56,339 bases of DNA, taken from positions 1 through 56,339 of IMG/VR virus record IMGVR_UViG_3300037246_000311; one strand, 5' to 3'. The stretch comes from a virus. Taxonomy: Duplodnaviria; Caudoviricetes. The notes beneath the pieces were generated by a model, which saw nothing but the letters and a program-made list of their open reading frames with translations, was not told the origin of the DNA and made no database searches. Positions within the stretch are counted from its first letter, which is position 1; the number at the start of each line of letters is the position of its first letter. The position numbers and the translations under genes were made by a program. This document shows positions 2,575 to 42,620 of this stretch, in pieces.

Positions 2575-3464
2575 CATATCTCATCCCCCAACAGCCAGCA
2601 AGCGGTGGCGTCACACTCAGCAGCTCGTGGAGATTCAGCACGACCGTCACGGCTGCGGATCCTGGTAGCAAGACCATGCGGTACGACGATGCCGTACCAG
2701 GTGACGTCACCGAGTTGTACATCAACGACATCACCAACGAGAACGGGGATGCCGGTACGATCCTGGGCCTACTCGCTGCCGGCAACCGGATCTATGTCCA
2801 GCAGCAGGATGACGCCTCGAGGGCAACCCTGTTCGAGTTGACCGGCCCAGCAGTTGACAACACTGGCTGGTGGACGTTGCCGGTATCCGTAGTCAGTACC
2901 CTGGCGTTGCCGGCGAACAACAAAACCTGCGCGGTGATCATGAACCTGGGAGCCGGTGGTGGTGGTGGCAGCAACATCGTCAACCTGGGCGTGGAAGATC
3001 TGACCGGCGTCAACACGATTGACCTCGAGGGCTGGCAGACCGGCGATGTGGTTCAGGGATTCAGGGTGGACTACTGGGACGTCAACATGAACGGCAATGC
3101 CCAGGATCCAACCATCAGACTGTACGACAGCACTGGTGCCGCGGTGGCTGCTGGTTACAACAACTTCTGCTGCGAGATGGAGCAGGCTGCTTTCAATCAC
3201 ATCATCACTGCCGAGACTACCCGAGCCAGGATGGATGGCGCCAGTGGCCTGGGCCTGTTTCACGGATTCTTCGAGGGTCGCCTGGTCGATGATGTGCTTT
3301 TCAAGTGGACCATCACCGGCCAGTTCTATGACGACTTCGATGACAGCGTGATGTTTTGTTTCTGCGATGTTGACATCGGTGACGTCCTGCACGGCCTTCG
3401 GTTGCAGACCGCGAACGTGGGCAGCTTGACTGCCGGCTTCCTCAACACGAAGTACTGGACATGA
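2571..3464 (+). CDS. tail-associated structural protein
   Basis: ATGA overlap with the upstream stop; beta-rich, Gly linker; lies between two fibre genes. Confidence 0.55.
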   Translation: MTYLIPQQPASGGVTLSSSWRFSTTVTAADPGSKTMRYDDAVPGDVTELYINDITNENGDAGTILGLLAAGNRIYVQQQDDASRATLFELTGPAVDNTGWWTLPVSVVSTLALPANNKTCAVIMNLGAGGGGGSNIVNLGVEDLTGVNTIDLEGWQTGDVVQGFRVDYWDVNMNGNAQDPTIRLYDSTGAAVAAGYNNFCCEMEQAAFNHIITAETTRARMDGASGLGLFHGFFEGRLVDDVLFKWTITGQFYDDFDDSVMFCFCDVDIGDVLHGLRLQTANVGSLTAGFLNTKYWT

Positions 3465-6400
3465 CTACCAGCCAGCAATCCAGATTAGGATCCTCACCTG
3501 AAGAGGGGATGAAGGCGCCAGTCGTCGCGATCTCTTCTGGCCAGGAGACACTCTTCGGCATCGGCCAATCGATTGCCGGCATAGTGATCGCTGACATGGA
3601 TCGCGTGGCCATCAACGCCCAGACCGACCCGACCGAGAACGGGATCTACAACGCTCGAGGCGGCAAGGACTGGGAGAGGGCGACCGACTTCAACAACCCC
3701 GACGATGTCGAGAACGGGCAGCTGTTGTCGGATGGCAACACCTCCGCGGTCTACTCGATCATCGCTCCGGATCCCTGGAACCCAGGCGTTGACGTTGTGA
3801 ACTTCGGCCTGCTGCTGTCGCCTGTCGGATTCTTCTGGGGCGCCATCACTGGGACCATCTCCAACCAGGCAGACCTGCAGATCGAACTCGACGCGAAGTC
3901 TGATGTGGGCCACGGTCATGTCGAAGCTGACATCTCAGATCTCCAGGCGTACATCCTTGACGCTGCAGGATCCATCGCATCGGACGGTGAGTTCTACGCC
4001 AGGCGTAATGCTGACTGGGAAGTCATCGACTTCAGTGTCTTCGCGCCAGCTGTCCACGGCCACGTTGAAGCAGACATCAGTGATCTCGGCGCCTACCTAC
4101 TCGACGCTGCAGGATCTATCGCGAACGACAACCAACTGTGGGCCAGGGCGAACGGCGCCTGGCAGGCATTCTCGACTTCCTCCGGTACAACCGGCGAGAT
4201 CATTGCCTGGCCAGACGCGGATGTGCCGCAGAATTTTCTGGACTGCAACGGCCAGTTGCTCAACGCTGTCACCTTCGCGGATCTGTTCGCGGTGCTCGGT
4301 TACAAGTACGGTGGATCCGGATCCAACTTCAACGTGCCAGATCTGCGCGGCCAGTTCATCCGCGGCACGGCCAATGGTAGTGGCCAGGATCCTGACCGGC
4401 TGGCGAGGACTGACCGCGGCGATGGAGCAACGGGTGACCTGGTAGGTACCAAGCAATCCTACGAGCTGCAGCTGCACGGCCACACTGTGCCGTTCAAGTT
4501 TGTTGGCTCGACTGAAGGTGGTGGCGGTGACTTGGAAGTCAGGGCGCAGAACACCCCGACCAGCAACACAGGTGGCAGCGAAACCCGTCCGCGCAACATC
4601 AACATGAACTACATCATCCGCTACACAGGTGGTGGATCCGGAATCACCCAGCCTCCGAGCATCGAGGTCCAGGACGATGGCGTCAACCTGACTACCGCGG
4701 TGCAGCTGCTGAACTTCATCGGCTTCAATCTGGAGCAGCCGATCCTTGACCAGATCAACATCTCGTTTGGAGCATCGGTCAACAACGCAACCTACTGCCC
4801 GAACTACGCCTTCAACTTTATCGACACCACTTCCTGGAGCATTATCGGGTTTGATGCAACCAACCTGTTTAGCGTGGGCAGGCGCCTGCGGTTTGTCGAT
4901 GGTGCGTCCAACTACTTCGGCACCATTCTCAGCTCTGCCTTCGGGGCTGATACCACCATGAACATGTCGATGGAGTCAGGCGATGTACTGACCTCCACCA
5001 TCACTGAGGTTTGCCTGGTAAACGGTGGAGTTGCCTGGCAACCAATCAGCCAGGACCCTTTCGGGGGAACCGCGATCCGAGGCATCGAGACCGGCTCCAT
5101 CGGTGTCACGCAATACTGGGTCATTTGTGGTGATGCTGGGAAGGTTGCTTTCAGTACCGATGCTGGGTTGACCTGGACCGTAGCCACCACTGGCACATCC
5201 GAGAATCTCAATGACGTTGCTTACAACCGAGATGATGAATCGTTCCTGGTTGTTGGTAACACCGCGGTCTTGCTGCACAGCACCGATGGCGAGAACTTTG
5301 CCTTGGACACCTCCTCGATCCCTGCCCTGCCCGAGTTTATCTCTGGCCAAGCGGACATCTACTCGTGCATGTACGACCGTGGGGGTCAGGGTTACCGTGT
5401 GCAGTGGGCGATGTCCGATGTCGCACAGACGGGCAACGCTTACACTACGGATGACACTGCGACCTGGGATTCAACGCCGAACATTGGCACAAAAGTGAAC
5501 GTGGGTGAGGCGAAGATCGGGGCCATCAAGAGCGGTCTCGCTGATACCGATCTCGGGATGTTTTACCAACAGAACATCGACCTCAATCAGTTTGGGATTA
5601 TCCCTGATGAAACAGGGTCCTCGTTTGTTAACGTGTCCAGCCAGGCTGCGGTCAGAGGCTGCAGGTCATTCGTTGATCAGAACGGTTCTACTGTCAGGAT
5701 ATTCGTTGGCCGCGCTGACGGGGAGATCTTCCACAACACCTCGCTTGCGGATGACGTTACGTTTGGATCCAGTGGCATCAATGCTTTTGTGGAATCGCTT
5801 TCGCTTGAGCGGATGATCGGGGTCGCGGATGATGGCAAGATCGGGTTCTGCGACCAGGCCAACTACACTGCCAACGATGCATGGCAGCTGGTCCAGAACG
5901 GCAGCAACCCGCTGGCCAGCTTCACTGATGTAATGTGGAACGAGGTCGATGGCATGTACGTTGCGGTCAATGACCAGGGGCAGATCCTGCGCTCAACTAA
6001 CGGACTCGACACCTTGCCGCCACCAGCTCCGTTCGTGGGCTGGACTGCCATTGCTCAAGATCCATTCAGTGGCGGCAACATCCAGCACATCGCGACCGGC
6101 GTGATCGGTGGTACTGAGTACTGGGTCATTGCTGGCAGCACCTTGATCTTCACCAGCGTCGATGCCGGCGTCACCTGGGTCTCCAGGACATCCGGTGTCA
6201 GTGGATCCATCACTACGTTGAAGTACGACAACACGAACGAGGCCTTCATCGCTGGCTGCTCGAACGGTGACTTCACCAGGACAACTAATGGCACGACCTG
6301 GGTAGCGGACACCACCACGGTCCAGGCAATCCCTGGCCTCACCGGCAGCGGTCGGTTCAATGGCATGGTCTGGAGTCCAGGCGCGGCCTTGTGGTCCGTC

Positions 6401-7000
6401 TTCATGGAGTTCAATCTCGCCACAACGGGGAGCCTGACTGCTAACGCTGACATGACTGTCTGGGCGCAAGCGGATTTGACCACCAATGCCACCGGCAGTG
6501 GACCGGACAACACCATGGTGTACGATGGATTGATTGGTGGCCGAACCATCTACGCTGGCCATGCCATCTCCTACGTCTACTACTCCGATCCCACTGACAA
6601 TAGCCCAATCAGTCTCAACAACATGAGCGAACCCGTCACTGCCGCGTTTTCCAAGTTAGGCACACTGGGTGACATCCAGGATCTGTTCATCGGTGACAAT
6701 GTTGGCGACATCGAGTTGATGTCCTCGACCACTGTGAGAGCGGTCAATGATGGCGCACTGAATGGTCCGGTCAACGCCTTCTCGTACTCCAGTGTGGCTG
6801 ATCGGATGATCGCTGTCGGTAATGCCGGCGAGATCAAGACCCAGTCAGCAGCAGACCTCGAGACCGTTGGCACCTGGCGCGATGTCACGACTCCGTTTGG
6901 TGGTAATATCAACGATGTCGATTACAATGTCAGCGACGATATTTTCATTTGCGTTTGCGCCGATGGCGTGATCGCCAGATCAGTGGACGGCATCTCATGA
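3461..7000 (+). CDS. tail fibre protein 2 (collar domain plus two Asp-box/BNR beta-propeller repeats)
   Basis: N-terminal domain paralogous to 880..2574; collar motif GEIIAW..P..FL.CNG...LFAVLGYKYG..F.VPDLRGQF..ETRPRN; Asp-boxes STDAGLTW and SVDAGVTW. Confidence 0.85.
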   Translation: MTTSQQSRLGSSPEEGMKAPVVAISSGQETLFGIGQSIAGIVIADMDRVAINAQTDPTENGIYNARGGKDWERATDFNNPDDVENGQLLSDGNTSAVYSIIAPDPWNPGVDVVNFGLLLSPVGFFWGAITGTISNQADLQIELDAKSDVGHGHVEADISDLQAYILDAAGSIASDGEFYARRNADWEVIDFSVFAPAVHGHVEADISDLGAYLLDAAGSIANDNQLWARANGAWQAFSTSSGTTGEIIAWPDADVPQNFLDCNGQLLNAVTFADLFAVLGYKYGGSGSNFNVPDLRGQFIRGTANGSGQDPDRLARTDRGDGATGDLVGTKQSYELQLHGHTVPFKFVGSTEGGGGDLEVRAQNTPTSNTGGSETRPRNINMNYIIRYTGGGSGITQPPSIEVQDDGVNLTTAVQLLNFIGFNLEQPILDQINISFGASVNNATYCPNYAFNFIDTTSWSIIGFDATNLFSVGRRLRFVDGASNYFGTILSSAFGADTTMNMSMESGDVLTSTITEVCLVNGGVAWQPISQDPFGGTAIRGIETGSIGVTQYWVICGDAGKVAFSTDAGLTWTVATTGTSENLNDVAYNRDDESFLVVGNTAVLLHSTDGENFALDTSSIPALPEFISGQADIYSCMYDRGGQGYRVQWAMSDVAQTGNAYTTDDTATWDSTPNIGTKVNVGEAKIGAIKSGLADTDLGMFYQQNIDLNQFGIIPDETGSSFVNVSSQAAVRGCRSFVDQNGSTVRIFVGRADGEIFHNTSLADDVTFGSSGINAFVESLSLERMIGVADDGKIGFCDQANYTANDAWQLVQNGSNPLASFTDVMWNEVDGMYVAVNDQGQILRSTNGLDTLPPPAPFVGWTAIAQDPFSGGNIQHIATGVIGGTEYWVIAGSTLIFTSVDAGVTWVSRTSGVSGSITTLKYDNTNEAFIAGCSNGDFTRTTNGTTWVADTTTVQAIPGLTGSGRFNGMVWSPGAALWSVFMEFNLATTGSLTANADMTVWAQADLTTNATGSGPDNTMVYDGLIGGRTIYAGHAISYVYYSDPTDNSPISLNNMSEPVTAAFSKLGTLGDIQDLFIGDNVGDIELMSSTTVRAVNDGALNGPVNAFSYSSVADRMIAVGNAGEIKTQSAADLETVGTWRDVTTPFGGNINDVDYNVSDDIFICVCADGVIARSVDGIS

Positions 7001-7479: not shown

Positions 7480-7856
7480 TGCAGTACATCGCCGGCTTTT
7501 TCATCATCCTCTCCGTGCTGACCGGCACCTTCGGGTTGTGGACCAAGATCCAGTTGCAGCAGGCCGAGGCCGAGATCCAGGTATTGATCATCGAAAAGGA
7601 TGCCGCTGTGGCCTCGCAGGTGGCCGCTGAAGAGGCGCAAGCATTCCAGGCGATTCAGGTACAGGAGTTCCAGGTTAGGAACGCACAGCTACAAGCGGAC
7701 GCCGTAGCGTCACGGAAGCAGGTCGAGTACACGAGAGATTTATTCAACGACCACGACTTCGCAAAGCTGATGGCGGCGAAGCCTGGGTTGATCACCAACC
7801 GAATGCAGAGGGCCACCGATGCGGTGCTTGCTGATCTCCGCGCTGTTACTGAGTAG
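7479..7856 (+). CDS. i-spanin (Rz-like)
   Basis: N-terminal TM helix plus coiled coil, directly after the endolysin. Confidence 0.75.
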   Translation: MQYIAGFFIILSVLTGTFGLWTKIQLQQAEAEIQVLIIEKDAAVASQVAAEEAQAFQAIQVQEFQVRNAQLQADAVASRKQVEYTRDLFNDHDFAKLMAAKPGLITNRMQRATDAVLADLRAVTE

Positions 7857-23041: not shown

Positions 23042-23428
23042 ATGACAGAACTCGAGCTGACGTATCCACCGTCAGTCAACAACTACTACACCAAGTGGTG
23101 CCAGTACGTTGCGAAGGCCAGCAAGCACGTTGTGAAAGTAGCCGTTGGCGATCGCGGGATGGCGTATCGAGCTGAAGTTCGCCGGTACAAACTGGTCACC
23201 CTCAAGAATCCACAACCACTCAAGGGCCGGCTCTCGATGGAGTGCCAGCTCTGGGCGCCCGACCGAAGGAAGCAGCACTACAACATCGACAACTTTCTGA
23301 AGTGCCTGCTGGACGCCATCACCTACGCTGGAATCTGGATCGATGATGACCAGGTCGATGTGCTCCTGATCCACAAGCGAGGCGTCGAGGCGCCAGGCCG
23401 AATCATCGTTACACTGAGGGAAATATAA
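23042..23428 (+). CDS. rusA: RusA-family Holliday junction resolvase
   Basis: L.YPPSVN, PDRR..NIDN.LK.LLDA...IW.DD.QV. Confidence 0.9.
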   Translation: MTELELTYPPSVNNYYTKWCQYVAKASKHVVKVAVGDRGMAYRAEVRRYKLVTLKNPQPLKGRLSMECQLWAPDRRKQHYNIDNFLKCLLDAITYAGIWIDDDQVDVLLIHKRGVEAPGRIIVTLREI

Positions 23429-23979
23429 TGGGAGATCGATTCGATGAAGAGCAATGCCCGATGTGCGGGTTCCATGAACTACACTCGGTCAGCTTCAGAT
23501 CTGCCGGTGATCCACTGGTCACCATCATTGGCTTCTGGCCCATCGAAGAAGACCAGCACAGGAACTATGACGACCGGCGAATATCCAGGTGCCACTACCG
23601 AACGGTATGCAATCACGCGCACTGGGATCTACAAATAATCGAAGAGCCTGGGCAGGCGATGATACCGAAGGGCGTACCCGTCATCGGTGTTGACGAGCCG
23701 TACAAACTCAATCCCCAGGGACCAGTGCATGTGAGCAAAGATCCACCCGAGCACATCCATGAGCTGGAGAATTTCATGCACCCAGCATCGGCCACTTACA
23801 TCCTGGGCAACACGCACTACCAGAGGCCGAGCGATCACTTCGACTGTGACCAGCTGGTCGGCATCATAATGGATGACCTGGACGCCGCGGAGTATTCGCC
23901 GTTCTATGGGAACCAGATGGCCGCGATGATCTGGTACGATCGAAAGCTGAAGGGATCCAGCTACCTGGATATTGAGTGA
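23428..23979 (+). CDS. SPOUT (SpoU/TrmH-like) methyltransferase-like protein
   Basis: VPVIGV.E, L.NF.HP..A.YI.G, CD.LV.I, A.MIWYDR..K resemble the SpoU core. Confidence 0.5.
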   Translation: MGDRFDEEQCPMCGFHELHSVSFRSAGDPLVTIIGFWPIEEDQHRNYDDRRISRCHYRTVCNHAHWDLQIIEEPGQAMIPKGVPVIGVDEPYKLNPQGPVHVSKDPPEHIHELENFMHPASATYILGNTHYQRPSDHFDCDQLVGIIMDDLDAAEYSPFYGNQMAAMIWYDRKLKGSSYLDIE

Positions 23980-24215
23980 TGGATCCTGAAGACAGATTTG
24001 TTACGCTGAAGATTGTCAACGACAAGCTGGCAGCTCAACCGATCATGCACGAGGTGGTCCAGCGGTGGGAAGATGTCGCCAACATCATGATCAAAAAGTT
24101 CATGGCCTCGAAGGAGTTCGACAGGTACGTCCAGGATGTCTTCACCCTGGGTACAGGCCGCATCGACATTGGTAAATGGGTACTGGAGAATTTTGATGAT
24201 ACTAACAAGACGTAG
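23976..24215 (+). CDS. hypothetical protein
   Basis: Coupled ORF. Confidence 0.55.
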   Translation: MMDPEDRFVTLKIVNDKLAAQPIMHEVVQRWEDVANIMIKKFMASKEFDRYVQDVFTLGTGRIDIGKWVLENFDDTNKT

Positions 24216-24750
24216 GTTTTTGCAGAGCGTAGCAGCCAGCACCCTGTTCGTGGCGCCGGCAATCGTCAGGTCCGAAAGCCTGATGAAGATCTTCATACCA
24301 GGCCAGCGCGTCAAGTTCCGTGTGCCAGATCTCCGCGGACATTTCGCAACCAACCCCGAGCCGATGAACCTCCCTGCCCAGCGTGAGATGACAGCGACCG
24401 AGGTCCTCGAGCGCCGTGAGGAAGTCAAGACAACCTGGGCGAAGCGTTGGAACGATCACATGCATGAGGACAACGCCAGGCAGATGATGCAGGCCGCGGC
24501 AACGAAAGCGGTCAACGAGAAGATCGACGCCGAAATTTACAGCCAGCTCCAGGGACACGAGATCACTGGCGTGTGGCTCGATGAATCCGATGTGGTCAAG
24601 AACCAGGTCGCCTACCACATTGAACAGAACACCGGCCAGGTCCAGGCATTCACCGATCACCCGATGGGTTGGATCCCCTGTGATGGCCGTGAGCTGTCAG
24701 CGATCGAGCACCCGAATCTGTACATGGTCCTGGGCAACAAGTATGGATAA
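24196..24750 (+). CDS. Tat-leader mosaic protein of collar, portal, capsid and terminase motifs (candidate immune decoy)
   Basis: GGAG RBS at 24185; TRRRFL leader; segments match this genome's own tail fibre, portal, capsid and TerL. Confidence 0.75.
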   Translation: MILTRRRFLQSVAASTLFVAPAIVRSESLMKIFIPGQRVKFRVPDLRGHFATNPEPMNLPAQREMTATEVLERREEVKTTWAKRWNDHMHEDNARQMMQAAATKAVNEKIDAEIYSQLQGHEITGVWLDESDVVKNQVAYHIEQNTGQVQAFTDHPMGWIPCDGRELSAIEHPNLYMVLGNKYG

Positions 24751-24934
24751 CGTCATCCCATTCCCCAGGCGCAAGCGAATCATCGTTGATGACTTCCGAC
24801 TCACGCCTGACCAGGCAGTAGCTGTCGGTAATTGGGCAGAGCAAACCCTCGAGGTCATTGAAGCCGAGATCATGCAAGACGACCTGGACGATGCGATCCG
24901 TAGAGTCCTCCGACAAGAGGGCCTGATCGAATGA
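24743..24934 (+). CDS. hypothetical protein
   Basis: Start MDNVIPFPRR overlapping the upstream stop. Confidence 0.55.
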   Translation: MDNVIPFPRRKRIIVDDFRLTPDQAVAVGNWAEQTLEVIEAEIMQDDLDDAIRRVLRQEGLIE

Positions 24935-25236
24935 CAGATCCTCGAGGACCAACCTGGCGAATAACAGCAAGCGGTCACCGCTGTGGCTGGCCTGGCTGCG
25001 AGGAGTTCATCGCTGGCCGGCTATGGGGATGTCGTGACCACTGGCTCCTGGTGCCTGTCAAATTGCGGGACGCATACATGGAAGCTGGATCCGGACAACA
25101 GAAGATCGGGGTCAGCATCCAGGAGAAGCCATCAGTCATGGCGGTCGATCAGGACATCCAGCACTGGGTGCGCCATCAACACAGCTCGGCTCATCTCCTG
25201 GGCATCACGAGCTACCCGCCTGATGATGCGGCCTGA
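24931..25236 (+). CDS. small Cys/His zinc-binding phage protein
   Basis: HRC.WPGC.....LWGC..HW..VP..LR motif. Confidence 0.65.
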   Translation: MTDPRGPTWRITASGHRCGWPGCEEFIAGRLWGCRDHWLLVPVKLRDAYMEAGSGQQKIGVSIQEKPSVMAVDQDIQHWVRHQHSSAHLLGITSYPPDDAA

Positions 25237-25853
25237 TGGTTAAGAAAAAGCCAGCGAAGAAGATAGTCACGCCGGCTGCGAAGAAGAGAGCGCAGCTGAT
25301 GAGGGCTGAACGTGCCGATGGGATCAAGCGCGAGAAGTTCTGCCAGCACTATGTCCTGACCCAGAACGCGACCGAATCCTACCAGGTGTCACACGGCACA
25401 AAGGCCCGACCGATCCAGGACAACACCGCGGCCACAGCTGGTTGGCGCCTGCTGAGAAATAGTGAGATCCACAGCAGGCTGAAGGAGCTGCGGATCCATG
25501 GCCACGAGCACCTGATGGTCAGCTTCGAGGAAACCCTGCAGGAGATCGGTGGCCTGGCCATGTTCGATCCCAAGGATATGTTCGATGACAATGGCCGAGT
25601 ACTACCGATCCACGAGATGCCGATCGTCGCCAGGAAGATGATCCACGAGTTCAAGCAGTACACCACCGAGAGCACCAACGACGAGGGCGATGTCACCGCC
25701 ACCAGGTACGAGACCGAGATCAAGTACGGCAAGGACAAGGGCAAGTACCTGGACATGGTCATGAAGTTTTACAACGCCTACCAGGAGCACCAGAAGGCTG
25801 GCAGTGGCATCATCGTCGTGCAACAATACTGCGCCCAGGATGCCAACTTGTAG
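25236..25853 (+). CDS. terS: terminase small subunit
   Basis: EKFC..Y....NAT..Y, A...G.RLLRN..I; directly upstream of TerL. Confidence 0.85.
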   Translation: MVKKKPAKKIVTPAAKKRAQLMRAERADGIKREKFCQHYVLTQNATESYQVSHGTKARPIQDNTAATAGWRLLRNSEIHSRLKELRIHGHEHLMVSFEETLQEIGGLAMFDPKDMFDDNGRVLPIHEMPIVARKMIHEFKQYTTESTNDEGDVTATRYETEIKYGKDKGKYLDMVMKFYNAYQEHQKAGSGIIVVQQYCAQDANL

Positions 25854-25859
25854 GTAGAC

Positions 25860-27356
25860 ATGAGTTTCAGTCCAGCTGCTGATGCACCCCTGAAGTTCCA
25901 GTACAAACTAACGTCCGACCAGATGTCGGCCATGAATAACCTGTCCGCTGACGCCACGCACTGTGCGCTCGGTGGGGGATCCCGCAGCGGCAAAACCTTC
26001 CTGATCGTCCGAGCCATCTTCATGAGGGCCTGCGGCGTACCCAACAGCCGGCACCTGATCTGCCGCTACCGCTTCAACGTCTGCAAGACAGCCATCGGCC
26101 TCGACACCGTGCCGAAGGTGGTCAGGCTGTGCTTCCCCGAGCTGCCACCTGCCGATGACATGCTCGACAAGACCGACTGGTACTACAAGCTGCCGAACGG
26201 ATCCGAGGTATGGATCTCTGGCCTGGACGAGGAGAAGCGCGTCGAGAAGGTCCTGGGCCACGAGTATGCGTCGATGTTCTTCAACGAGTGCAGCCAGATT
26301 CCCTGGAAGTCGGTCGAGACTGCGCTGACCAGGCTGGCCCAGAAGACCAGCTGGGACGAGTACGACAAGGACGATGTGCTCATTGCCAGGCACAAGGGCC
26401 TGAAGCTGAAGGCCTACTACGATCTAAACCCGCCGAGCAAGCGACACTGGTCCTACATTCGATTCATCTCGAAGAAGGATCCGGAGCCACCGCATCGAGT
26501 CCTGCGCAACGAGTTCGATTACAACTATCTCACAATGAATCCGCATGGCAACGCGGCGAACCTGGATCCCAAGTACCTGTCGCAACTCGAGGCCCTGGGG
26601 GAGGCGGCGAAGAAACGCTTTCTCTATGGTCAGTGGGCAGATGATACAGATGGATCCCTCTGGACCGAGGAGACCCTGTCGCAGAACAGAGTGCTCGGCC
26701 AAGAAGGGCAGAGGCTACCTCAGTGGCTTCGTGTTGTTGTTGCCGTGGATCCCAGTGGTACCAAGGGCCATGAGGACAAGCGATCAGACGAAGTCGGGAT
26801 CGTTGTCGTCGCTCTTGGTACCGATGGGCATGGGTATCTGATCGAGGATCTATCGATCAAGGCACCGCCCGAAGTCTGGGGCAAGATCGTTGCCGATGCA
26901 TACGACAGGCACAGCGCCGATCGGATTGTTGGCGAGGTCAACTATGGTGGCGACATGGTACGCGCCGTCATCCAGGCCCAGGACCCCAAGCTGCCATTCA
27001 CTGCAGTCACAGCGAGTCGAGGCAAGGAGGTTCGAGCCGAGCCGATCAGCGCCATCTATGACCAGGGCAACATCCATCACATTGGCTACTTCCCTGAACT
27101 CGAGGAGCAGCTGATGGCCATGTTGCAATCTGGCTACGTTGGGCTGAGATCACCCGACCGAGCTGACGCCATGATCTGGGGATTCACTGAGCTGTTCCCG
27201 AAGATGGTGAAGAAGGAGCACGGCCCGAGCATCCCGCCGAAGATCAACCTGGCACCCAGGTCAGCCAGGAGCCACAAGTACGCGCAGAATCAGAACGTCA
27301 AAGTCAACACATCAGGAGGGGGGGCAACCCGCCGCCGAATCCGGAGAAAGATATGA
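25860..27356 (+). CDS. terL: terminase large subunit
   Basis: Walker A GGSRSGKT, Walker B variant MFFNE, LNPP, nuclease VAVDPS, GKEVRAEP, SPDRADA. Confidence 0.95.
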   Translation: MSFSPAADAPLKFQYKLTSDQMSAMNNLSADATHCALGGGSRSGKTFLIVRAIFMRACGVPNSRHLICRYRFNVCKTAIGLDTVPKVVRLCFPELPPADDMLDKTDWYYKLPNGSEVWISGLDEEKRVEKVLGHEYASMFFNECSQIPWKSVETALTRLAQKTSWDEYDKDDVLIARHKGLKLKAYYDLNPPSKRHWSYIRFISKKDPEPPHRVLRNEFDYNYLTMNPHGNAANLDPKYLSQLEALGEAAKKRFLYGQWADDTDGSLWTEETLSQNRVLGQEGQRLPQWLRVVVAVDPSGTKGHEDKRSDEVGIVVVALGTDGHGYLIEDLSIKAPPEVWGKIVADAYDRHSADRIVGEVNYGGDMVRAVIQAQDPKLPFTAVTASRGKEVRAEPISAIYDQGNIHHIGYFPELEEQLMAMLQSGYVGLRSPDRADAMIWGFTELFPKMVKKEHGPSIPPKINLAPRSARSHKYAQNQNVKVNTSGGGATRRRIRRKI

Positions 27357-27559: not shown

Positions 27560-27813
27560 CCGAAGCAGAGAAGGATCCAGGCATCGATGACATCGTGAAG
27601 ATGAACATCCCGCCCGAGGATAAGGTCCACTTCATCGCTGACCTGGCCAAGCACCGCGGCAAGTGCATGGACCATGACGCCATCGAGATCAAAAAGGCCG
27701 TCACCATCATCAAGCAGCAGATCAGGCAGATCGAGATGCTACGGCACAAGCTCAAGGTCCGATCTCCCTGGGACAACTTCAAGATCTGGATGAACGGCTG
27801 GGCAAACTCATGA
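27556..27813 (+). CDS. hypothetical protein
   Basis: Coupled ORF. Confidence 0.55.
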   Translation: MTEAEKDPGIDDIVKMNIPPEDKVHFIADLAKHRGKCMDHDAIEIKKAVTIIKQQIRQIEMLRHKLKVRSPWDNFKIWMNGWANS

Positions 27814-28394
27814 AGTGGTTCCGCAAGATTGGCGACACCTTCGATCCTGATTCAGTCGTGCTCTCAGAAGTCCGCGACGAGCTGTACCGACAGCCACTGT
27901 TCTGGGGCAAATCGCCCAGGGTAACCTTCCCAGGATCTCCGCACCGCGACACCGAGGACATCGTGCTTCGAGGGCCGGTCGGGATCCACAGCAAGTCACT
28001 CCAGGAACTGCATGTCGAGATTGCCTGCGAGGACTACCCAGCCTCCGAGCTGATGCCGGCGACATTGAGGATGGCCAACAACCTGGCGTACCTGCTCTCG
28101 AGTCCGGAGATGCAGCACCTGGATTCACCGCTGCGCCTGGGCCGCGTGATCCTGACCAAGCTGCCACCAGGTAAGTCGATTCACCCGCACAAGGACGAGG
28201 GCGCCGTGCCTGAGTTCTATCGACGCTGCCACCTGGTGGTAGAGGGCGGCGACGAGAATGTGTTCCTGATTGCCGACGAGGTCCAGGTCATGCAGTCAGG
28301 CGAGATGTGGGAGTGTGATGTCCGAGAGCTGCACACGGTGGTCAACCTGATGGAAGACGCGAGGGTCCACCTGATCGTGGACATCGAGCGATGA
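27810..28394 (+). CDS. aspartyl/asparaginyl beta-hydroxylase-like 2OG-Fe(II) oxygenase
   Basis: L.PG..I.PHKD, R.HL, GEMW..D...H.VVN, RVHLIVD. Confidence 0.85.
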   Translation: MKWFRKIGDTFDPDSVVLSEVRDELYRQPLFWGKSPRVTFPGSPHRDTEDIVLRGPVGIHSKSLQELHVEIACEDYPASELMPATLRMANNLAYLLSSPEMQHLDSPLRLGRVILTKLPPGKSIHPHKDEGAVPEFYRRCHLVVEGGDENVFLIADEVQVMQSGEMWECDVRELHTVVNLMEDARVHLIVDIER

Positions 28395-30938: not shown

Positions 30939-32510
30939 ATGACGATGTCGCCTGGCATGCTCCGGAAGTTCTCTCGAGAGCGGTTCGAGAAGCAGTACCC
31001 TGTGCTCAGTCTCTGGCAGGAGCTGGCCGAGAACTTCTACCCCGAGCGCAACGATTTCCTCCGCACCCATTACATTGGCGAAGAGCTGACAGACAGCCTG
31101 GCCTCGAGTCAGCCCCTGTTGATTCGCCGTGAGTTAGCCAACAGTCTCGAGGCCATGCTGCGGGACGGCGAGTGGTTCTCGATCGGCATCGAGGACGAGC
31201 CTGATCACGAGGGCAAGATGTGGCTCGAGTGGGCGACCAAGCGATTGATGATGCTGATGAACCAGCGCAACGCCAACTTCCGCAGGGCCACCAAGGAGAT
31301 GGACAACGACTACATCACCTTCGGCAATGGCGTCATGTCGATCGAGCTGAATCGCCAGGCATCCGGACTACTGTTCCGCACCTGGCACATGAAGGACATG
31401 GCCTGGTGGGACGACGAGAATGGCCAGGTCGATGGCGTGGTCCGCAAGGAGGACATCGCGCTGTACAAGATGGCGCAGTACTACGGCGAGGAGAACATGC
31501 CGAAGGCGCACCAGAAGAAGCTGAAGGACCACCCGTTCCACGAGGTGCCGATCCACCACTTCGACATCACCTCGAGCATGTACGGCGATCCACAGCTCGA
31601 ACGATTCCCGCGGGTCCTGCTGACGCTCGACCTGCAGACCGAGACCATCATGGAGATCGGAGGCAGCATGCACCCCCGATACATCGTGCCTCGGTTCCAG
31701 ACCATAGCTTGCAGCCCGTATGCGTACTCGCCTGCAACTGTGGTAGGTCTCCCAGACGCTCGAACCCTTCAAGCGATGACACATACACTATTGGAAGCTG
31801 GGGAACGTCACGCGAGACCGCCTATTATTGCGACCGAGAATGTCATCCGAGGAGATGCGAATCTCTACCCTGATGGCATCACGTTCGTGAGCGAAGACTA
31901 CGACGAGCGCCTCGGCGCCAGCCTGCGGCCCCTGGTCCAGGACAGCAAGGGCTTCCCGCTCGGCATGGAAATGCGCGAGGGAATTGTCGAGGTCCTGCAG
32001 GCCGCGTTCTACGTCAACAAGATCAACATGCCTGACATCGGTCGGGAGATGACAGCCTACGAAGTCAGTGAACGCATGAAGCAATTCAGGCGTGAGAACC
32101 TGCCGCTGTTCGCACCGATCGAGCACGAGTACTCAGGCCGCATGTGTGAGCTGGCCTTCGAGACTGCGCTCAAGCATGGCTTCCTGGGATCACCCCAGGA
32201 CATCCCGAAATCCCTGCTCGGCCAGAACATCCGATTCAAGTTCGAGTCACCATTGTCCGAAGCCGACGAGGAGAAGAAGGTCACGCAGTTCCAGCAGGTC
32301 GCGCAGCTCCTGGAGACAGCAGCAGCCGGCGATCCATCCGTGGCCAACCATGTCGATTTTGGCATCTCACTACGCGATGCAATCCAGGGATCCGGAGCAC
32401 CAGAAAAATGGCTGCGTAGCCTGCAGGATGTGAAGGCCATGACCGAGCAACAACAGCAAGTCGCAGCCACCCAGCAGGCAGCTGCGATGGCGGCAGAGGA
32501 GGCAGCATGA
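30939..32510 (+). CDS. portal (head-tail connector), T7 gp8/BPP-1-like
   Basis: WQELA..FYP.R, FGNG.M, PRF......Y.YSPA, MTA.EV.ER, F.FESPL; 523 aa. Confidence 0.92.
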   Translation: MTMSPGMLRKFSRERFEKQYPVLSLWQELAENFYPERNDFLRTHYIGEELTDSLASSQPLLIRRELANSLEAMLRDGEWFSIGIEDEPDHEGKMWLEWATKRLMMLMNQRNANFRRATKEMDNDYITFGNGVMSIELNRQASGLLFRTWHMKDMAWWDDENGQVDGVVRKEDIALYKMAQYYGEENMPKAHQKKLKDHPFHEVPIHHFDITSSMYGDPQLERFPRVLLTLDLQTETIMEIGGSMHPRYIVPRFQTIACSPYAYSPATVVGLPDARTLQAMTHTLLEAGERHARPPIIATENVIRGDANLYPDGITFVSEDYDERLGASLRPLVQDSKGFPLGMEMREGIVEVLQAAFYVNKINMPDIGREMTAYEVSERMKQFRRENLPLFAPIEHEYSGRMCELAFETALKHGFLGSPQDIPKSLLGQNIRFKFESPLSEADEEKKVTQFQQVAQLLETAAAGDPSVANHVDFGISLRDAIQGSGAPEKWLRSLQDVKAMTEQQQQVAATQQAAAMAAEEAA

Positions 32511-33043: not shown

Positions 33044-34015
33044 GTGAAATTCATGAACGACAGGTGGTCCAGTGGCCACGTTTACAGAGCCGAAGCCGGC
33101 GAAGGTGGTGAAGGCAGCGGCGGTGAAGGTGAAGGCGGCGGCGAGGGAGAAGGCGGCGAAGGCAAGGGAGGCGAAGGCGAAGGCAAAGGCGGTGAAGGCG
33201 AGGGCGAGGGCGAGGGCGAAGGTGACGGTGGATCCGGTGCCGGCGATACCTGGCGCACTAACCTGGCCGGCAAGAATGAAGAGTGGGGTAAGCGCCTCGA
33301 GCGTTACACCGACCAGGATAAATTCCTCGAGTCAGCGTTCCAGGCCCACGACAAGATCCGAGCCGGCGAGGTATCACTCGGCCTGCCCGAGGATGCATCC
33401 GAAGAGCAGATCAGCGACTTCCGCGTAGCCAATGACATCCCACTGACGGCTGACAAGTACGACTTCACCGGATCCGAGCGTGAGCTGTCCGAGATGGATC
33501 TCGAGATGATGGGACCAGTGGCCGAGATCGCTCACAAGTACAACATCTCCAACGAGGCCCTGAACGATTTGATGGGTACCTACATGGCCGAGACCGACAA
33601 GGTGGTCGAGCAGATGCATGTCCAGGACAACCTGGATGCCCAGGAGTTCACGAAGATCGCGAAGGAGAACTGGGGGCCTGAGTATCAGATCAATATGAAC
33701 CGAGCCACCAACCAGTTCAACCTGCTACCGGAAGCAGTCCGTGACGCGATCAAGCAGGCCAAGATGCCCGATGGCCGCGGCATCATGAACTGCCCCGAGT
33801 ACATGACCTGGTTGGTCAATGTCGATCGCCAGATCACACCGATGGATCCGATCAAGGGTGGCCAGGAGGCTACGCTGAACGATGCGCGTCAGGTGGTGGC
33901 CAAGGCGCTGGAGCGTATGCGTGATGATTCGGTTGCCTGGCACAAGGACAACAAGGCCCAGGATGATTACATGAAGGCCCAGACCATGATTGACCAGTTC
34001 GAGGGATCGCAGTAG
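33044..34015 (+). CDS. capsid scaffolding protein
   Basis: Gly/Glu-repeat N-terminus, WR..LAG, P....Y, K.WG.EY..N; acidic and helical; upstream of capsid. Confidence 0.8.
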   Translation: MKFMNDRWSSGHVYRAEAGEGGEGSGGEGEGGGEGEGGEGKGGEGEGKGGEGEGEGEGEGDGGSGAGDTWRTNLAGKNEEWGKRLERYTDQDKFLESAFQAHDKIRAGEVSLGLPEDASEEQISDFRVANDIPLTADKYDFTGSERELSEMDLEMMGPVAEIAHKYNISNEALNDLMGTYMAETDKVVEQMHVQDNLDAQEFTKIAKENWGPEYQINMNRATNQFNLLPEAVRDAIKQAKMPDGRGIMNCPEYMTWLVNVDRQITPMDPIKGGQEATLNDARQVVAKALERMRDDSVAWHKDNKAQDDYMKAQTMIDQFEGSQ

Positions 34016-34452: not shown

Positions 34453-35298
34453 ATGGCTGATACAGCCTTCCAAGAAATGTTTCGTCAAGAAGTTGTCATG
34501 GGGTTTGAAAAGGGCCAGAGTCTGGCTCGTCGGACCACTACCGTAGAGACCGAAATCAATGGCAACGAAGCCACATTTTTGGTTGCTGACAGCGGTGGGG
34601 CAACGGCAACAACCCGTGGCGTCAACGGCGACATTCCTACACGCCCCGATAACCTGAACCAGTTCACCGCGCTGCTCCAAGAGTGGCACGATGTTCCGGA
34701 ACGCACGAGATTCAACATCTATGCGTCCCAGGGTGATGGTCGTCGGATCATGCAAGAGACCTCGATGAAGGTCATCAACAGAAAGATCGATGATGACATC
34801 TACACCGAACTCAACACCGCCTCCACTACCTGGACAGGTGGCGCAGCAGCAGCGACCGTAGCACTGGTCTCGGATGCTCGGACAATCCTTGCGAATAACT
34901 TCGCTCTGGATGAAGAGCCTTTCGCGATCATCACGCCTGCCTTCTGTGGCCAACTGATGGGCTTCCGTCAATTCACTTCAAGCGACTTCGTGAACCTGAA
35001 AGGGTTCGAGAATGTCAGCAAGTCTCGTGCCTTCAACTGGTACGGGGTGAACTGGATTGTGGACGCCGGTTTGCCAGGCACTGGTACCGCTACCGCGGAT
35101 TGCTTCATGCATGCGAAGGCCGCGATCGGCCATGCGTGTGATATTGAAAACATCCGCACCGAGGTAGGGTACGACCGCAAGAACGACAAGTCGTGGGCGC
35201 GGGCAACAACCTTCATGGGTAGTAAGCTGCTGCAGGACATCGGCGTGGTCAAGATGACACACGATGATACAGCTGCCTTCCCAGTGAATACAACGTAA
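34453..35298 (+). CDS. major capsid protein
   Basis: AFQ..FRQE...GFE...S..R, NRKIDD.I; AGGAG RBS; position after the scaffold. Confidence 0.88.
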   Translation: MADTAFQEMFRQEVVMGFEKGQSLARRTTTVETEINGNEATFLVADSGGATATTRGVNGDIPTRPDNLNQFTALLQEWHDVPERTRFNIYASQGDGRRIMQETSMKVINRKIDDDIYTELNTASTTWTGGAAAATVALVSDARTILANNFALDEEPFAIITPAFCGQLMGFRQFTSSDFVNLKGFENVSKSRAFNWYGVNWIVDAGLPGTGTATADCFMHAKAAIGHACDIENIRTEVGYDRKNDKSWARATTFMGSKLLQDIGVVKMTHDDTAAFPVNTT

Positions 35299-40243: not shown

Positions 40244-40792
40244 ATGCCAATGAACTGGGGTGCAGTCATCTCAAGTGTCGGACAGAGTTTCCTGTCGATG
40301 AATGAGGCGTACAACAAGTCGAAGATCCTCGAGTCGCAGAGCAAGCTCGACTTCACCCTGGCCGGTATCGAAGCCAGGCAGATGGATCGTGCGGCCACCG
40401 GCATCGAGAACCAGGGCGTCCGTGCGGCGATGATCGAACAGTACAAGACCAGGGTGGTCACCTCCGATGCCATCGCGGCCATGGCTGCAGGTGGTGGTGG
40501 TGTGGACCCATTGATGCTGGCCAAGATCAAGCAGCGCGGCGACTACAATTCCATGTCGGCCATCTTTGATGCCAGGACCGAGGCCATCGATCTGCGCTAC
40601 CAGGCAGACATGACTCGCATCGGCGCCGAGTACGAAAAGGGCGCCAGCAAACGCTACGGCAAGTCACTGCGGCGTGAGGCAACGACCGGCGCCGTTTTCA
40701 ATTCGATGGACCTGTTCGCCAAGGCGTACTCGCCCAAACCTAAAACCAAGCCAGCTAAGTACGAGCACTGGCAATCAAGCCCGAGTTTCTAA
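40244..40792 (+). CDS. internal virion (ejection) protein, gp14-like
   Basis: Ala/Gly-rich helical, A.MAAGG.GVD; position after the nozzle. Confidence 0.7.
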   Translation: MPMNWGAVISSVGQSFLSMNEAYNKSKILESQSKLDFTLAGIEARQMDRAATGIENQGVRAAMIEQYKTRVVTSDAIAAMAAGGGGVDPLMLAKIKQRGDYNSMSAIFDARTEAIDLRYQADMTRIGAEYEKGASKRYGKSLRREATTGAVFNSMDLFAKAYSPKPKTKPAKYEHWQSSPSF

Positions 40793-42618
40793 TGGCCACT
40801 ATTCCAACAGCTGAAGACCTGGGCCTCCGCGCCCCGACCACGGTTGCCCGAGGCGCCTCCACTCGAGGCGTTCTAACGGGTCGTGCCAGGGCAATGGACC
40901 TGAAGTCGGTCGAGACTACCGCTGCCCAGGAAGGCCTGAAAGAGGTAAGCGACCGCATCGCCAACGAAGAGCTGGCCACTGCCGAGGTCCAGTTCCAGCT
41001 GGGCGCTATGGCCGAGGCCAACAAGTACAAAGACGATCCGGATCTCGACACCATCGAAGAGCGCCACGCTGCCGGCATGCAGGACCAGCTGGGCAAGGCC
41101 TCGGCCAACATCACCAGCGCCAAGACTCGAGCACTGTTTATCACCCGCGGTGAGCTGGGCGTGGCCAGGGCCAACTACAACATTTCCGAGAAGACTACGG
41201 CCAGGAAGAACGATCGCGAGAAAGGCCACATGGCCAACGCCATCGACCTGATGGTGAAGGGCGGCATGGATCTCGAGTACGGGGATCCAGGTACCGCCGC
41301 GGTCGGCATCCAGCTGACCCTGGACTCGATGGTCGAGCGCAACGTCATCAGCGCCGTCGATGGCCAGCAAACCATGAAGAAGGCCCAGCTCGACATGGCC
41401 TACGGCAGGCTGAAGCAGATGGCACCGGAACAGCAGCTCGAGATCTTGAACAGCCCAGATCCGAAGACGCAGAAGTGGCTGGCCGATGTGCCGCCCGATG
41501 TGCTCCGCAGCCTGAAGGATGAAGCTCTGCGCCAGGAAGCAAACGGCAGGGCCTTGACCATGGCCTTCGAGATGTCGGGCATGGACGAGGCCGAAGGCCT
41601 GGCGAAGCTCGAGCAGGATTTTGTCAACGGTGATCTCTCTGACGCCGACTACGAGAAGACCCGCCTGCGGTTCATGCGCGTGAAGAATGACCAGGATACC
41701 GTGCAGCTGAATGCCATCGAGGCCTACCTCGAGGAAGGCATGGCTGAGATCGCTTACGGCAGTACCACGGTCGCGCAGATCGAGTCCACACCTGGTGGCA
41801 TCGACATGCTGAAGAAGATGACCCAGGCCCAGCGTAACAACCTGTACGCGGCTGAAGACAACGCGATGAAACGTGCTGCCGGCATGGGCCTCAAGTACTC
41901 CGACTGGCCCACGAAGTCTCACCTGCGAGAGCTGCTGGCGACAGACCAGCATGTCAAGGCTCGTAAGTACTGGTCCGAAAATTCAGCGAAGTTCAACGAT
42001 GGTGACTGGAAGTACTTCAATGCGGCGACCTCACCCTCGAAGAGCAAGGCAGCTGAGTGGGATCCAATCCGGTCAGCGCGTCAAACCCTGGCCGAGTACA
42101 AGAAGCAGAACAAGGATATGACCGACCAGCAGGAGTCGGACATCTGGGATCGGATCGATGTCAAATCCAAGACGTACTTCAACGAGAACAATGGCAAGAA
42201 GGCACCCGATGCGCTGATGAATGAGTGGATCGATTTTGAGTTCATCAAGATCAAGCACACTGAAAACTGGTGGCCCGATGAAGAGAAGTTCCTGTTCCAG
42301 ATGGATAACACCGGCCTGCTGCAGCGTGACGAGGTTGTGGCCCAGATCGACTTCCTCCAGGAAGCGACCACCCTACCTCGAGCAGCCGCTGGCCAGCTGA
42401 TGGCTGGGTACTCCGGTGACAACTACGAGTTCGTGCCGAAGATGAAGGAGGCGCTCGGCGTGGTGCGCTCGGAGTTCCCGAACGAGGAGCCGTGGCAGCA
42501 CTGGGCGCGTATCAAAAGGTACCTGCATATTGACGAGGGAGGACCGGCGCAGGGATTCACGGGTAACCCATCGGTCGAGGACAAAGTCGGTCTCGGCCTC
42601 AATATCCCAGGGCAGTAG
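40792..42618 (+). CDS. internal virion protein, gp15-like
   Basis: MA.IPT start, helical 608 aa; position. Confidence 0.7.
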   Translation: MATIPTAEDLGLRAPTTVARGASTRGVLTGRARAMDLKSVETTAAQEGLKEVSDRIANEELATAEVQFQLGAMAEANKYKDDPDLDTIEERHAAGMQDQLGKASANITSAKTRALFITRGELGVARANYNISEKTTARKNDREKGHMANAIDLMVKGGMDLEYGDPGTAAVGIQLTLDSMVERNVISAVDGQQTMKKAQLDMAYGRLKQMAPEQQLEILNSPDPKTQKWLADVPPDVLRSLKDEALRQEANGRALTMAFEMSGMDEAEGLAKLEQDFVNGDLSDADYEKTRLRFMRVKNDQDTVQLNAIEAYLEEGMAEIAYGSTTVAQIESTPGGIDMLKKMTQAQRNNLYAAEDNAMKRAAGMGLKYSDWPTKSHLRELLATDQHVKARKYWSENSAKFNDGDWKYFNAATSPSKSKAAEWDPIRSARQTLAEYKKQNKDMTDQQESDIWDRIDVKSKTYFNENNGKKAPDALMNEWIDFEFIKIKHTENWWPDEEKFLFQMDNTGLLQRDEVVAQIDFLQEATTLPRAAAGQLMAGYSGDNYEFVPKMKEALGVVRSEFPNEEPWQHWARIKRYLHIDEGGPAQGFTGNPSVEDKVGLGLNIPGQ

Positions 42619-42620
42619 CG

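Follow-up and report, generated by a model that had tools for sequence, protein, structure and literature searches.

A phage gene near terS and terL encodes a small protein with a predicted Tat-type leader, a circularly permuted Collar domain, and a capsid-like segment

The subject of this study is a gene in a 56,339-base phage genome (Duplodnaviria; Caudoviricetes; IMG/VR record IMGVR_UViG_3300037246_000311), the whole of which we refer to as the window. The gene encodes P0001, a protein of 184 amino acids (aa). Our analysis indicates that P0001 begins with a leader of the twin-arginine translocation (Tat) type, followed by a Collar domain that appears to be circularly permuted and, between the two Collar pieces, a segment related to part of the phage's own major capsid protein. 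The same arrangement was found in a family of homologues, and the leader by itself appears to define a phage-restricted superfamily in which it is attached to very diverse cargo. We hold this account of the architecture and the family with high confidence. An earlier reading of the same DNA (the original prediction) had described P0001 as a 'motif mosaic' of collar, portal, capsid, and terminase signatures that might act as bait for host defense sensors. Of the four virion signatures proposed there, two are real, one is suggestive, and one is absent.

The open reading frame (ORF) and the amino acid strings quoted in that prediction were all located at their positions. To evaluate the matches, P0001 and 1000 composition-preserving shuffles of it were compared with each named protein, and a profile of the 13-member family was searched against all 484 six-frame ORFs of the window. 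Profile–profile comparisons were performed by hhalign with alignments of 34 capsids, 41 portals, and 21 TerL proteins from related contigs. Hidden Markov models (HMMs) of capsid, portal, and TerL were run against 88 leader-bearing proteins and 880 shuffled controls.

The C-terminal part of P0001 (aa 146–184), which had been likened to the collar of the tail fiber, matched Pfam Collar (PF07484, E 1.8e-10) with 41.1 bits against a cut-off of 24. Residues 151–184 aligned with positions 7–40 of the 57-position profile, and the protein ends there. The score of P0001 against the fiber was 78, compared with a shuffle maximum of 59 (0/1000). The likeness of FRVPDLRGHF, near the N terminus, to FNVPDLRGQF of the fiber was also borne out: the DNA contains a 17-mer match at 4334–4350 with one mismatch, none of 100 shuffles gave two matches, and the pattern F.[VLI]PD[LM]RG is present in only two of the 484 ORFs, those of P0001 and the fiber. 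The family profile found the tail fiber with E 6.7e-6, and Pfam Collar matched all 13 family members. The Collar of the window's fiber is itself homologous to T4 gp12 (1ocy_A, E 6e-9).

In the fiber the two matching parts are adjacent; the P0001-family profile aligned with fiber aa 269–310 and 314–327 (numbered from an ORF start at 3383). In P0001 the last Collar strand, F-x-V-P-D-L-R-G, is found at aa 41–48, ahead of the C-terminal piece. We built a Collar HMM of 48 positions from six intact Collar domains, and it gave two matches in swapped order in 15/15 proteins (the 13 family members plus P0020 and P0017). The C-terminal piece fell on HMM positions 2–31 with independent E values (i-E) of 1e-8 to 3e-13, and the N-terminal piece on positions 35–47 with i-E of 2.5e-4 to 4e-3. 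Jointly they span positions 2–47 of the 48, with the break directly after Y-G. A complete Collar domain in ordinary N-to-C order was not found in P0001 with either Pfam or our HMM. We conclude that the predicted Collar domain of P0001 is a circular permutation, in which the last strand comes first and the remainder is C-terminal. P0020 (113 aa) and P0017 (119 aa) have the leader and the permuted Collar with only a short linker; because they lack the approximately 95 residues that lie between the Collar pieces in P0001, this stretch looks like an insert, with the capsid-like helix as its core.

The capsid resemblance, for which the original prediction had given 11 identities in 24 positions (a count that we confirmed by eye), proved stronger than claimed. 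The Smith-Waterman score was 81, whereas the shuffle maximum was 57 (0/1000). BLASTP aligned P0001 aa 22–124 with capsid residues 23–126 (E 3e-7), the family profile found the capsid among the 484 ORFs with E 4.4e-6, and hhalign of the P0001 family against the capsids gave a probability of 90.6% and an E of 1.3e-6 over 82 columns. At E<0.05, our own capsid HMM matched 12 of the 13 family members, with a best value of 6e-8 and the aligned part colinear with HMM positions 84–126; the best value on the 880 shuffles was 0.14. Pfam Phage_capsid_2 matched three of the 13, with a best E of 0.0025, below its cut-off. The P0001 family showed neither a full-length capsid fold nor an above-cut-off PF19821 score, which the real capsid protein matches with E 8.8e-25. 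By these profiles P0001 is evidently not itself a capsid protein.

The portal strings quoted earlier are present, but they are not significant alone, since 49 of 1000 shuffles reached their score. The family profile gave the portal an E of 1.2 among the 484 ORFs, and hhalign gave a P of 0.0018 over 20 columns (probability 14.8%), for which about 0.13 matches are expected by chance with approximately 70 genes. Family members scored 4.6–8.0 bits with the portal HMM and the 880 shuffles no more than 2.4 bits, and the portal-like motif also occurs in the leader proteins P0066 and P0163. We rate the apparent portal resemblance of aa 61–80 as borderline. The supposed terminase Walker B motif is a chance match, its score being reached by 783 of 1000 shuffles; no similarity of P0001 to TerL was detected with the family profile (E 38), hhalign (P 0.038), or the TerL HMM (E of 0.86 or more, the same as with shuffles). 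The idea of a mosaic of virion pieces thus survives for the fiber Collar and the phage's own capsid, is borderline for the portal, and fails for the terminase.

A search of 5.8 billion protein clusters returned 16 matches, one of them the window's own protein. Twelve were full-length or near-full-length homologues with 44–77% identity and the architecture of P0001. Both the C-terminal ...GNKYG and FRVPDLRGH are kept in 12/12 homologues, and the 13-member alignment has 42 invariant columns. With 13/13 family members sharing one architecture, P0001 represents a single conserved design and not an ad hoc mosaic. In a tblastn search of 50,697 records of cultured phages, only the Collar piece of P0001 was matched, in two Arthrobacter phage minor tail proteins.

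We take the ATG at 24196 as the start codon, because a GGAG lies 7 nucleotides (nt) upstream and the homologue N termini, MILTRR in 10 of 12, agree with it. A sigma-70-like site at 24163–24191 was rejected as promoter evidence; the region has three such sites, compared with a shuffle mean of 6.0. A contig from an independent assembler (Logan), made from run X2 (possibly the source sample), spans 24246–24909 with no differences, and thus there is no sign of a misjoin inside the gene over that interval.

The ratio of nonsynonymous to synonymous substitution rates (dN/dS) was 0.35 for P0001 vs. its homologue in contig L002 (74 codons). The capsid protein of L002/L020 is 100% identical to that of the window, and the P0001 homologue only 77%. 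In a second contig, L001, gene order is syntenic with the window (a RusA-like gene, a 186-aa gene, the P0001 homologue, and then terS and terL); here the P0001 gene is the most diverged alignable segment, with 66% DNA identity compared with 74–89% for its neighbors. These values suggest that the gene is under purifying but relaxed selection and is a comparatively fast-evolving accessory gene.

The ends of the gene coincide with breaks in the similarity to relatives. Contigs of relatives from runs X3 and X4 match the window from exactly 24196 on and are unlike it before that point, and other contigs cease to match at 24746–24750, at the stop of the gene; breaks at one end or the other were seen in runs X1, X3, and X4. 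Runs X1, X3, and X4 also left parts of the stretch uncovered, from which we conclude nothing. L001 lacks the 79-aa ORF that overlaps the start of the gene in the window. Because the relatives' contigs break at its start and its stop, the gene resembles a cassette whose breakpoints are its two ends. There were also discontinuities inside it. In run X3, a contig of low depth (3.16) passes directly from 24419 to 24552, omitting 132 bases, with 31 letters on its shorter side, and relatives' contigs turn unlike the window at 24419 (X4), 24528 (X2), and 24556 (X3). The capsid-like middle segment (24420–24551, aa ~76–119) may be swapped or absent in some relatives, a weak hint because joints of 85% likeness in metagenomes are unreliable.

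The leader has the features of a Tat signal peptide, as originally predicted: a twin-arginine motif (T4-R-R-R-F-L-Q10), an h-region, and a predicted V-R-S cleavage site. The Tat-signal model TIGR01409 matched 11 of the 13 family members at E≤1 (best 2.9e-4), and Pfam TAT_signal matched 4 of the 13 at E≤1 and 24 of 75 other leader proteins at E≤0.01, some of them above the cut-off (e.g., P0091, 29.2 bits). Among the 88 leader proteins, 85 have a twin-arginine motif ([RK]R followed by any residue and two hydrophobic ones), in 86 a basic residue at −2 is flanked by small ones at −1 and −3, and, by a crude count, 58 have an uncharged run of at least 13 residues. The best PDB match of the profile was the signal of 3qsl_A, a 'putative exported protein', which has APAIVRA in common with the leader; this match is weak (E 0.2). 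On balance, real export of P0001 by the Tat pathway is probable.

Conservation of the leader extends beyond the predicted cleavage site. The motif ESLMKIWVP, just past the predicted cut, appears to be as conserved as the signal itself, which is unusual. Its Met is invariant in 41/41 distinct leader DNAs, and the same 41 DNAs all encode the peptide APAIV[KR]A[ED][SN][LI]MK with free use of synonymous codons, which argues that selection acts on the peptide. Several other accounts of the leader were considered and dropped. A DNA element, such as a recombination site or mobile end, does not agree with the use of all synonymous codons, including AGC and TCG for Ser and AGG and CGN for Arg. Descent from the capsid N-arm was rejected after comparison of a leader-only profile with the capsid alignment (P 0.41). 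The invariant Met as internal start of a leaderless isoform found no support, as the preceding Glu and Asp codons show no preference for GAG (GAA 14, GAG 11, GAC 8, GAT 7). A likeness of ESLMKIWVP to the TonB box of colicins was a poor fit by eye, given the invariant M-K.

A profile search of 1.84 billion representative proteins gave 360 matches at E≤1e-3, which fell into two classes: Collar proteins matched at their C termini, and many proteins of 79–144 aa that were alike only over their first 35–60 positions. With a leader-based profile, at least 614 clusters were found. Leader genes were located at 48 loci in viral contigs of 4–322 kb; among prokaryotes (one genome for each of 185,579 species) there were three loci only, all in records of metagenome-assembled genomes. 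The superfamily thus appears restricted to phages and combines a constant leader with very diverse cargo. One locus (L124) has the leader gene between terL and the portal gene, and in 10 loci it is divergent from terL. For two leader proteins, P0094 and P0091, a tblastn search of the 50,697 cultured-phage records found nothing, a search in which the BLAST low-complexity filter may hide the leader. No fused long leader proteins of 327–2000 aa were found, which is weak evidence.

Cargo was classified with Pfam and PHROG models on subsets of 75 and 120 proteins out of the 614 clusters. The 75 proteins, all outside the core family, gave Pfam matches to Collar (7), Laminin_G_3 (2), SU10_MCP (2), and PhiKZ_MCP (1, weak); two further single weak matches were taken as noise. 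Their named PHROG matches were all to virion proteins, namely tail or collar fibers, five major-head families, and a baseplate wedge. Precomputed Pfam matches for the best 120 of the 614 clusters were Collar (15), LamG (8), SU10_MCP (1), GP7 capsid (1), and fn3 (1). Most cargos have no recognizable domain, and every cargo with an above-cut-off curated match is either a piece of a virion protein or an adhesin-type domain (Collar, LamG, fn3, capsid N-terminal pieces).

Capsid pieces recur in this position. P0148 consists of the leader and positions 11–129 of the 292-position SU10 capsid profile (E 1e-12; 48.6 bits, cut-off 24.1), and P0194 of the leader and positions 3–50 of the 313-position GP7 capsid profile (E 1.5e-8; 34.4 bits, cut-off 27). 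The N-arm of the window's own capsid family (HMM 2–27) was detected in P0163, P0155, and L141 (E 4.5e-5, 1.6e-3, and 7.8e-3, respectively). Capsid N-terminal pieces thus appear to have been placed behind the leader repeatedly and independently, with the SU10 and GP7 cases above the Pfam cut-off and the Phage_capsid_2 type detected by our own profiles only. The original prediction had suggested gathering homologues through the leader to see whether cargo motifs vary combinatorially, and across this large family they do. By alignments and HMMs, the order in P0001 is leader, Collar strand, MTATEV helix, capsid helix, and Collar; in P0020 it is leader, Collar strand, and Collar. P0163 has leader, MTATEV helix, and capsid N-arm. 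From the alignments, P0026, P0015, and P0016 have leader, capsid-like helix, and an end in ...KYG.

Very large phage contigs carry leader genes as well: one of 322,570 bases with two of them about 16 kb apart (L109 and L117), one of 224 kb (L100), and one of 226 kb (L121). In L100 the cargo has a weak, below-cut-off match (E 6e-4) to the C-terminal end of the PhiKZ capsid model. A sub-family of 149–242 aa (L114, L128, L130, L131, L133, L135, L137, L138, and L140) has a common cargo (...HHIPERWATVWGVGWDFEV...) of unknown type, and each of its genes is head-to-head with a gene for a 594-aa TerL, followed by one for a 774-aa portal.

The explanation that fits best overall, and that we put forward tentatively, is that P0001 is a Tat-exported binder acting at the cell envelope, perhaps in superinfection exclusion. 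The host Tat pathway would export the folded protein, and signal peptidase would cut after V-R-[A/S]. The two Collar pieces would pack together as a single Collar-like fold and present the capsid-derived helix, and the product would serve as a binding module located in the envelope or periplasm. In this picture a constant 'address' (the leader) is joined to a variable 'warhead' (the cargo). Exclusion could come about through binding to the ejection machinery of an incoming virion, or to a receptor or other envelope component. Conceivable partners of the capsid-derived piece are ejected internal proteins, which touch the capsid interior and the portal inside the virion. Known exclusion proteins, such as T4 Sp and Imm, T5 Llp, and HK97 gp15, are typically small, variable, and exported. 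Interference at the envelope is the best fit because the protein is small, predicted to be exported, fast-evolving, polymorphic, and phage-only, with cargo of a binding type. A specifically exclusion-type role is, even so, doubtful.

Several points tell against an exported envelope binder. Export, cleavage, and closure of the fold are all deduced from the sequence; P0001 itself scores 12.6 bits with TIGR01409, below the cut-off of 16.7, and has Ser, not Ala, at −1. Neither the capsid shell nor the portal of a superinfecting phage ever reaches the periplasm, and a capsid-derived cargo would thus have no obvious partner there. The notion that cargo is always copied from the phage's own proteins did not hold generally, as BLAST matched the cargo to the phage's own large proteins in only one of five whole records (L115, LamG), and the G001 cargo resembles a capsid N-arm although a search of its 81%-complete record turned up no capsid of the matching family. 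A conserved partner gene was looked for within 4 kb of the leader genes, and none emerged across 47 loci. Finally, terL or portal lies within 4 kb in 17 of 48 loci, which could equally suggest a role in assembly or lysis.

A broader and bolder version of the exported binder, which we regard as unlikely, would make the leader plus ESLMKIWVP a dedicated 'address label' used by many phage types, from podoviruses to those of contigs >200 kb, to send mimics of virion parts to the Tat translocon or periplasm as decoys. The mimics would be the capsid N-arm and spine helix, the fiber collar, LamG, fn3, and possibly a portal helix. Their targets would be core proteins that rival phages eject, host sensors at the envelope, or sensors dragged out of the cytoplasm, and P0001 would be a two-epitope member that shows a capsid helix on a permuted Collar scaffold.

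Other explanations place P0001 elsewhere in the cell. A tether at the inner membrane that serves assembly or lysis, with the leader uncleaved as an anchor or docked on TatBC and the cargo binding capsid, scaffold, or fiber, would nucleate or time assembly at the membrane, or couple the timing of lysis to the build-up of virion proteins. It would account for the position of the gene just 5′ of terS and terL in the window and in L001, and for the loci near or between terL and portal described above; lysis cassettes often adjoin terminase genes, and in P22 and 80-alpha the scaffold is known to bind the capsid N-arm. The positive-inside rule, however, would keep the twin arginines inside and put the cargo on the periplasmic side, apart from both capsid and scaffold. 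With ~17 residues the h-region is short, the peptidase site is good in 86/88 leader proteins, P0001 has no second membrane segment, and no holin or spanin family matched. A spanin pair was considered and rejected, as no lipobox ORF was seen, by reading, inside or adjacent to the gene. We judge a membrane-tethered role improbable. Somewhat more improbable is a minor virion or decoration protein whose leader is a propeptide or targeting sequence instead of an export signal. Every cargo to which PHROG or Pfam gives a named family is a virion-type domain, and the gene is often in or beside the structural module; the leader, however, matches Tat-signal models and the signal of a bacterial exported protein and no known capsid-targeting sequence, its profile is unlike the capsid N-arm, and long leader-bearing proteins were lacking.

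The cytoplasmic bait of the original prediction, directed at immune sensors of virion proteins of the CapRel or Avs type, is about as improbable as a virion protein. The capsid homology is real and extends over the first third of that protein, N-terminal parts of capsids turn up again as cargo in the cases listed above, the gene evolves fast as an arms race would predict, and capsid proteins are known triggers of several abortive-infection systems. The Avs-relevant 'epitopes' are nevertheless missing or weak, given that the terminase match is a chance one and the portal match borderline. Avs and CapRel act in the cytoplasm, from which export would remove the protein, and thus a near-invariant export signal is hard to square with such a job; in a bolder variant, the Tat leader would drag the bound sensor to or through the membrane. 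A sensor-binding fragment that resembles the real trigger would be expected to fire the sensor, not block it, and for the majority of cargos (LamG, fn3, intact Collar, unknown small domains) no triggering role is known. The proposed link to defense sensors found no support from PADLOC, whose models cover defense and not anti-defense systems: P0001, four neighbors, and five other leader proteins matched none of its families (10/10 proteins). Least probable is evolutionary debris, a functionless chimera of fiber, capsid, and leader gene formed by illegitimate recombination. Patchwork composition and contig breaks exactly at the start and stop of the gene, as in a shuffled cassette, would suit it; an open frame with the same ends in 13/13 family members down to 44% identity, the invariant columns, the dN/dS value, and the free synonymous change behind a conserved leader peptide would not.

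The window is a complete virus record (CheckV completeness 100%) of class linear in IMG/VR. ORFs are open at both record ends (1–880 and 55466–56338), and simple abutting of the ends leaves their frames unjoined by arithmetic. The gene content indicates a podovirus-type genome with a T7-like portal; tail-tube proteins are encoded as well, and so are a scaffold (33044–34015) and internal or ejection proteins (40244–45119). Among cultured phages, TerL is closest to that of two Synechococcus phages (48% identity). No RNA source was listed for the stretch. The coordinates of the main features are given in Table 1.

Table 1. Features of the P0001 gene and of the related genes in the window
Feature	Position	Strand	Basis or remark
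P0001 gene, 184 aa plus stop	24196..24750	+	ORF call; homologue family
Shine-Dalgarno-like GGAG, 7 nt 5′ of ATG	24185..24188	+	Read from sequence
Predicted Tat-type signal peptide, aa 1–26	24196..24273	+	T-R-R-R-F-L-Q; uncharged h-region F8–V24; c-region V-R-S, basic at −2
Post-cleavage motif E-S-L-M-K-I-F-I-P	24274..24300	+	Superfamily consensus [ED][SN][LI]MK[ILV]xVP
Collar piece 1, aa 36–50, GQRVKFRVPDLRGHF	24301..24345	+	Last strand of Collar; aa 40–49 on HMM 38–47 of 48, i-E 0.0024
Helix with motif REMTATEVLERR, aa 61–80	24376..24435	+	Resembles portal; borderline
Capsid-like segment, aa 84–126	24445..24573	+	Homologous to spine-helix region of the phage's own major capsid protein
Collar piece 2, aa 146–184, ending ...LGNKYG	24631..24747	+	First two thirds of Collar; aa 156–184 on HMM 3–31 of 48, i-E 4e-11
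Tail fiber gene, 1179 aa, with Collar domain	3461-7000	+	Pfam Collar E 8.3e-18
Intact Collar domain, tail fiber	4190..4357	+	Pfam Collar E 8.3e-18; in-genome relative of Collar pieces 1 and 2
terS	25236-25853	+	PF03592 E 4e-13
terL	25860-27356	+	Annotation; context of P0001 gene
Portal gene	30939-32510	+	PF12236 (Head-tail_con), E 1.5e-46
Portal motif EMTAYEVSERMKQFRRE, aa 367–386 of portal	32037..32096	+	Counterpart of P0001 aa 61–80
Major capsid protein gene, 281 aa, HK97-fold, Phage_capsid_2 type	34453..35298	+	PF19821 E 8.8e-25; phrog_3437 E 1.6e-52
Capsid region aligning to P0001, residues ~23–126	34519-34830	+	BLASTP, hhalign

The gene lies shortly upstream of terS and terL, as had been noted; terS starts 486 nt downstream. 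Directly 5′ of terS, at 24931–25236 (+), is a gene for a 101-aa Cys/His-rich protein (GHRCGWPGCEEF...GCRDHW), which matches phrog_18063, of unknown function (E 5e-8), and has a counterpart in L001 at 7482–7838. On the other side, 23428–23979 (+) is a Cys-rich 183-aa ORF of unknown family, with no match in a Pfam scan, and it is preceded by a 128-aa ORF (23042–23428, +) that we take from its appearance to be RusA-like; this pair is also kept 5′ of the gene in L001. Just 3′ of terL, at 27810–28394 (+), a 194-aa protein matches Asp/Asn beta-hydroxylase (PF05118, E 3e-12), a 2-oxoglutarate-oxygenase-like gene within the packaging and head module. A single ORF of 2210 aa occupies 48834–55466 (+), where tail and internal proteins are encoded.

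The Tat signal, the Collar domain, and the HK97 capsid helix are all known parts. A literature search found nothing relevant on a permuted collar with a capsid-derived insert, nor on a cargo-swapping phage leader superfamily. If the leader works as a Tat signal, it marks a large phage-specific family of exported proteins, and its constancy provides a simple handle for hundreds of candidate envelope-level phage effectors in metagenomes. The repeated capture of capsid N-terminal pieces suggests a binding partner worth mimicking and bears on how capsids are recognized by cells or rival phages. P0001 also offers what appears to be a clean natural circular permutation of Collar with a foreign insert, which is relevant to protein evolution and design.

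Comparison with known systems places each part of P0001. With the Collar of T4 short tail fiber gp12 (PF07484; PDB 1OCY, 1PDI, 5IV5) it shares both motifs, W-x-x-C-D-G...L-G-x-x-Y-G and F-x-V-P-D-L-R-G; unlike gp12, it has them in swapped order with the insert between them, in a 184-aa predicted exported protein that is no fiber. Compared with the phage's own HK97-fold capsid (PF19821), P0001 aa 84–126 (up to ~34–124 by hhalign) are colinear with capsid residues ~35–126, including the spine-helix motif N-x-K-I-D-x-x-I, but P0001 holds only about a third of the fold (~40–90 residues align, with 24–33% identity) and has neither the A-domain nor the P-domain sheet. The leader shares with bacterial Tat signals, such as that of PDB 3QSL, T/S-R-R-x-F-L-K/Q, a mildly hydrophobic h-region, a basic c-region, and a small-x-small site. 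In contrast to them, it is near-invariant across hundreds of unrelated cargos and occurs almost only in phage contigs, and its mature-side motif ESLMKIWVP is lacking in the 3QSL example.

In kind, P0001 belongs with exported phage accessory proteins and polymorphic effector families. Like T4 Sp and Imm, T5 Llp, and HK97 gp15, it is small, phage-encoded, predicted to be targeted to the envelope, and the product of a fast-evolving accessory gene; unlike P0001, those proteins use Sec, lipoprotein, or membrane-anchor routes and not Tat, and in Pfam and PHROGs the named exclusion proteins showed no homology to it. The leader family differs from polymorphic toxins in being phage-encoded, in having no immunity gene or conserved partner nearby, and in carrying binding or structural pieces rather than toxin or enzyme domains. 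What it has in common with polymorphic toxin and effector families is the joining of a constant N-terminal trafficking module to a swappable part.

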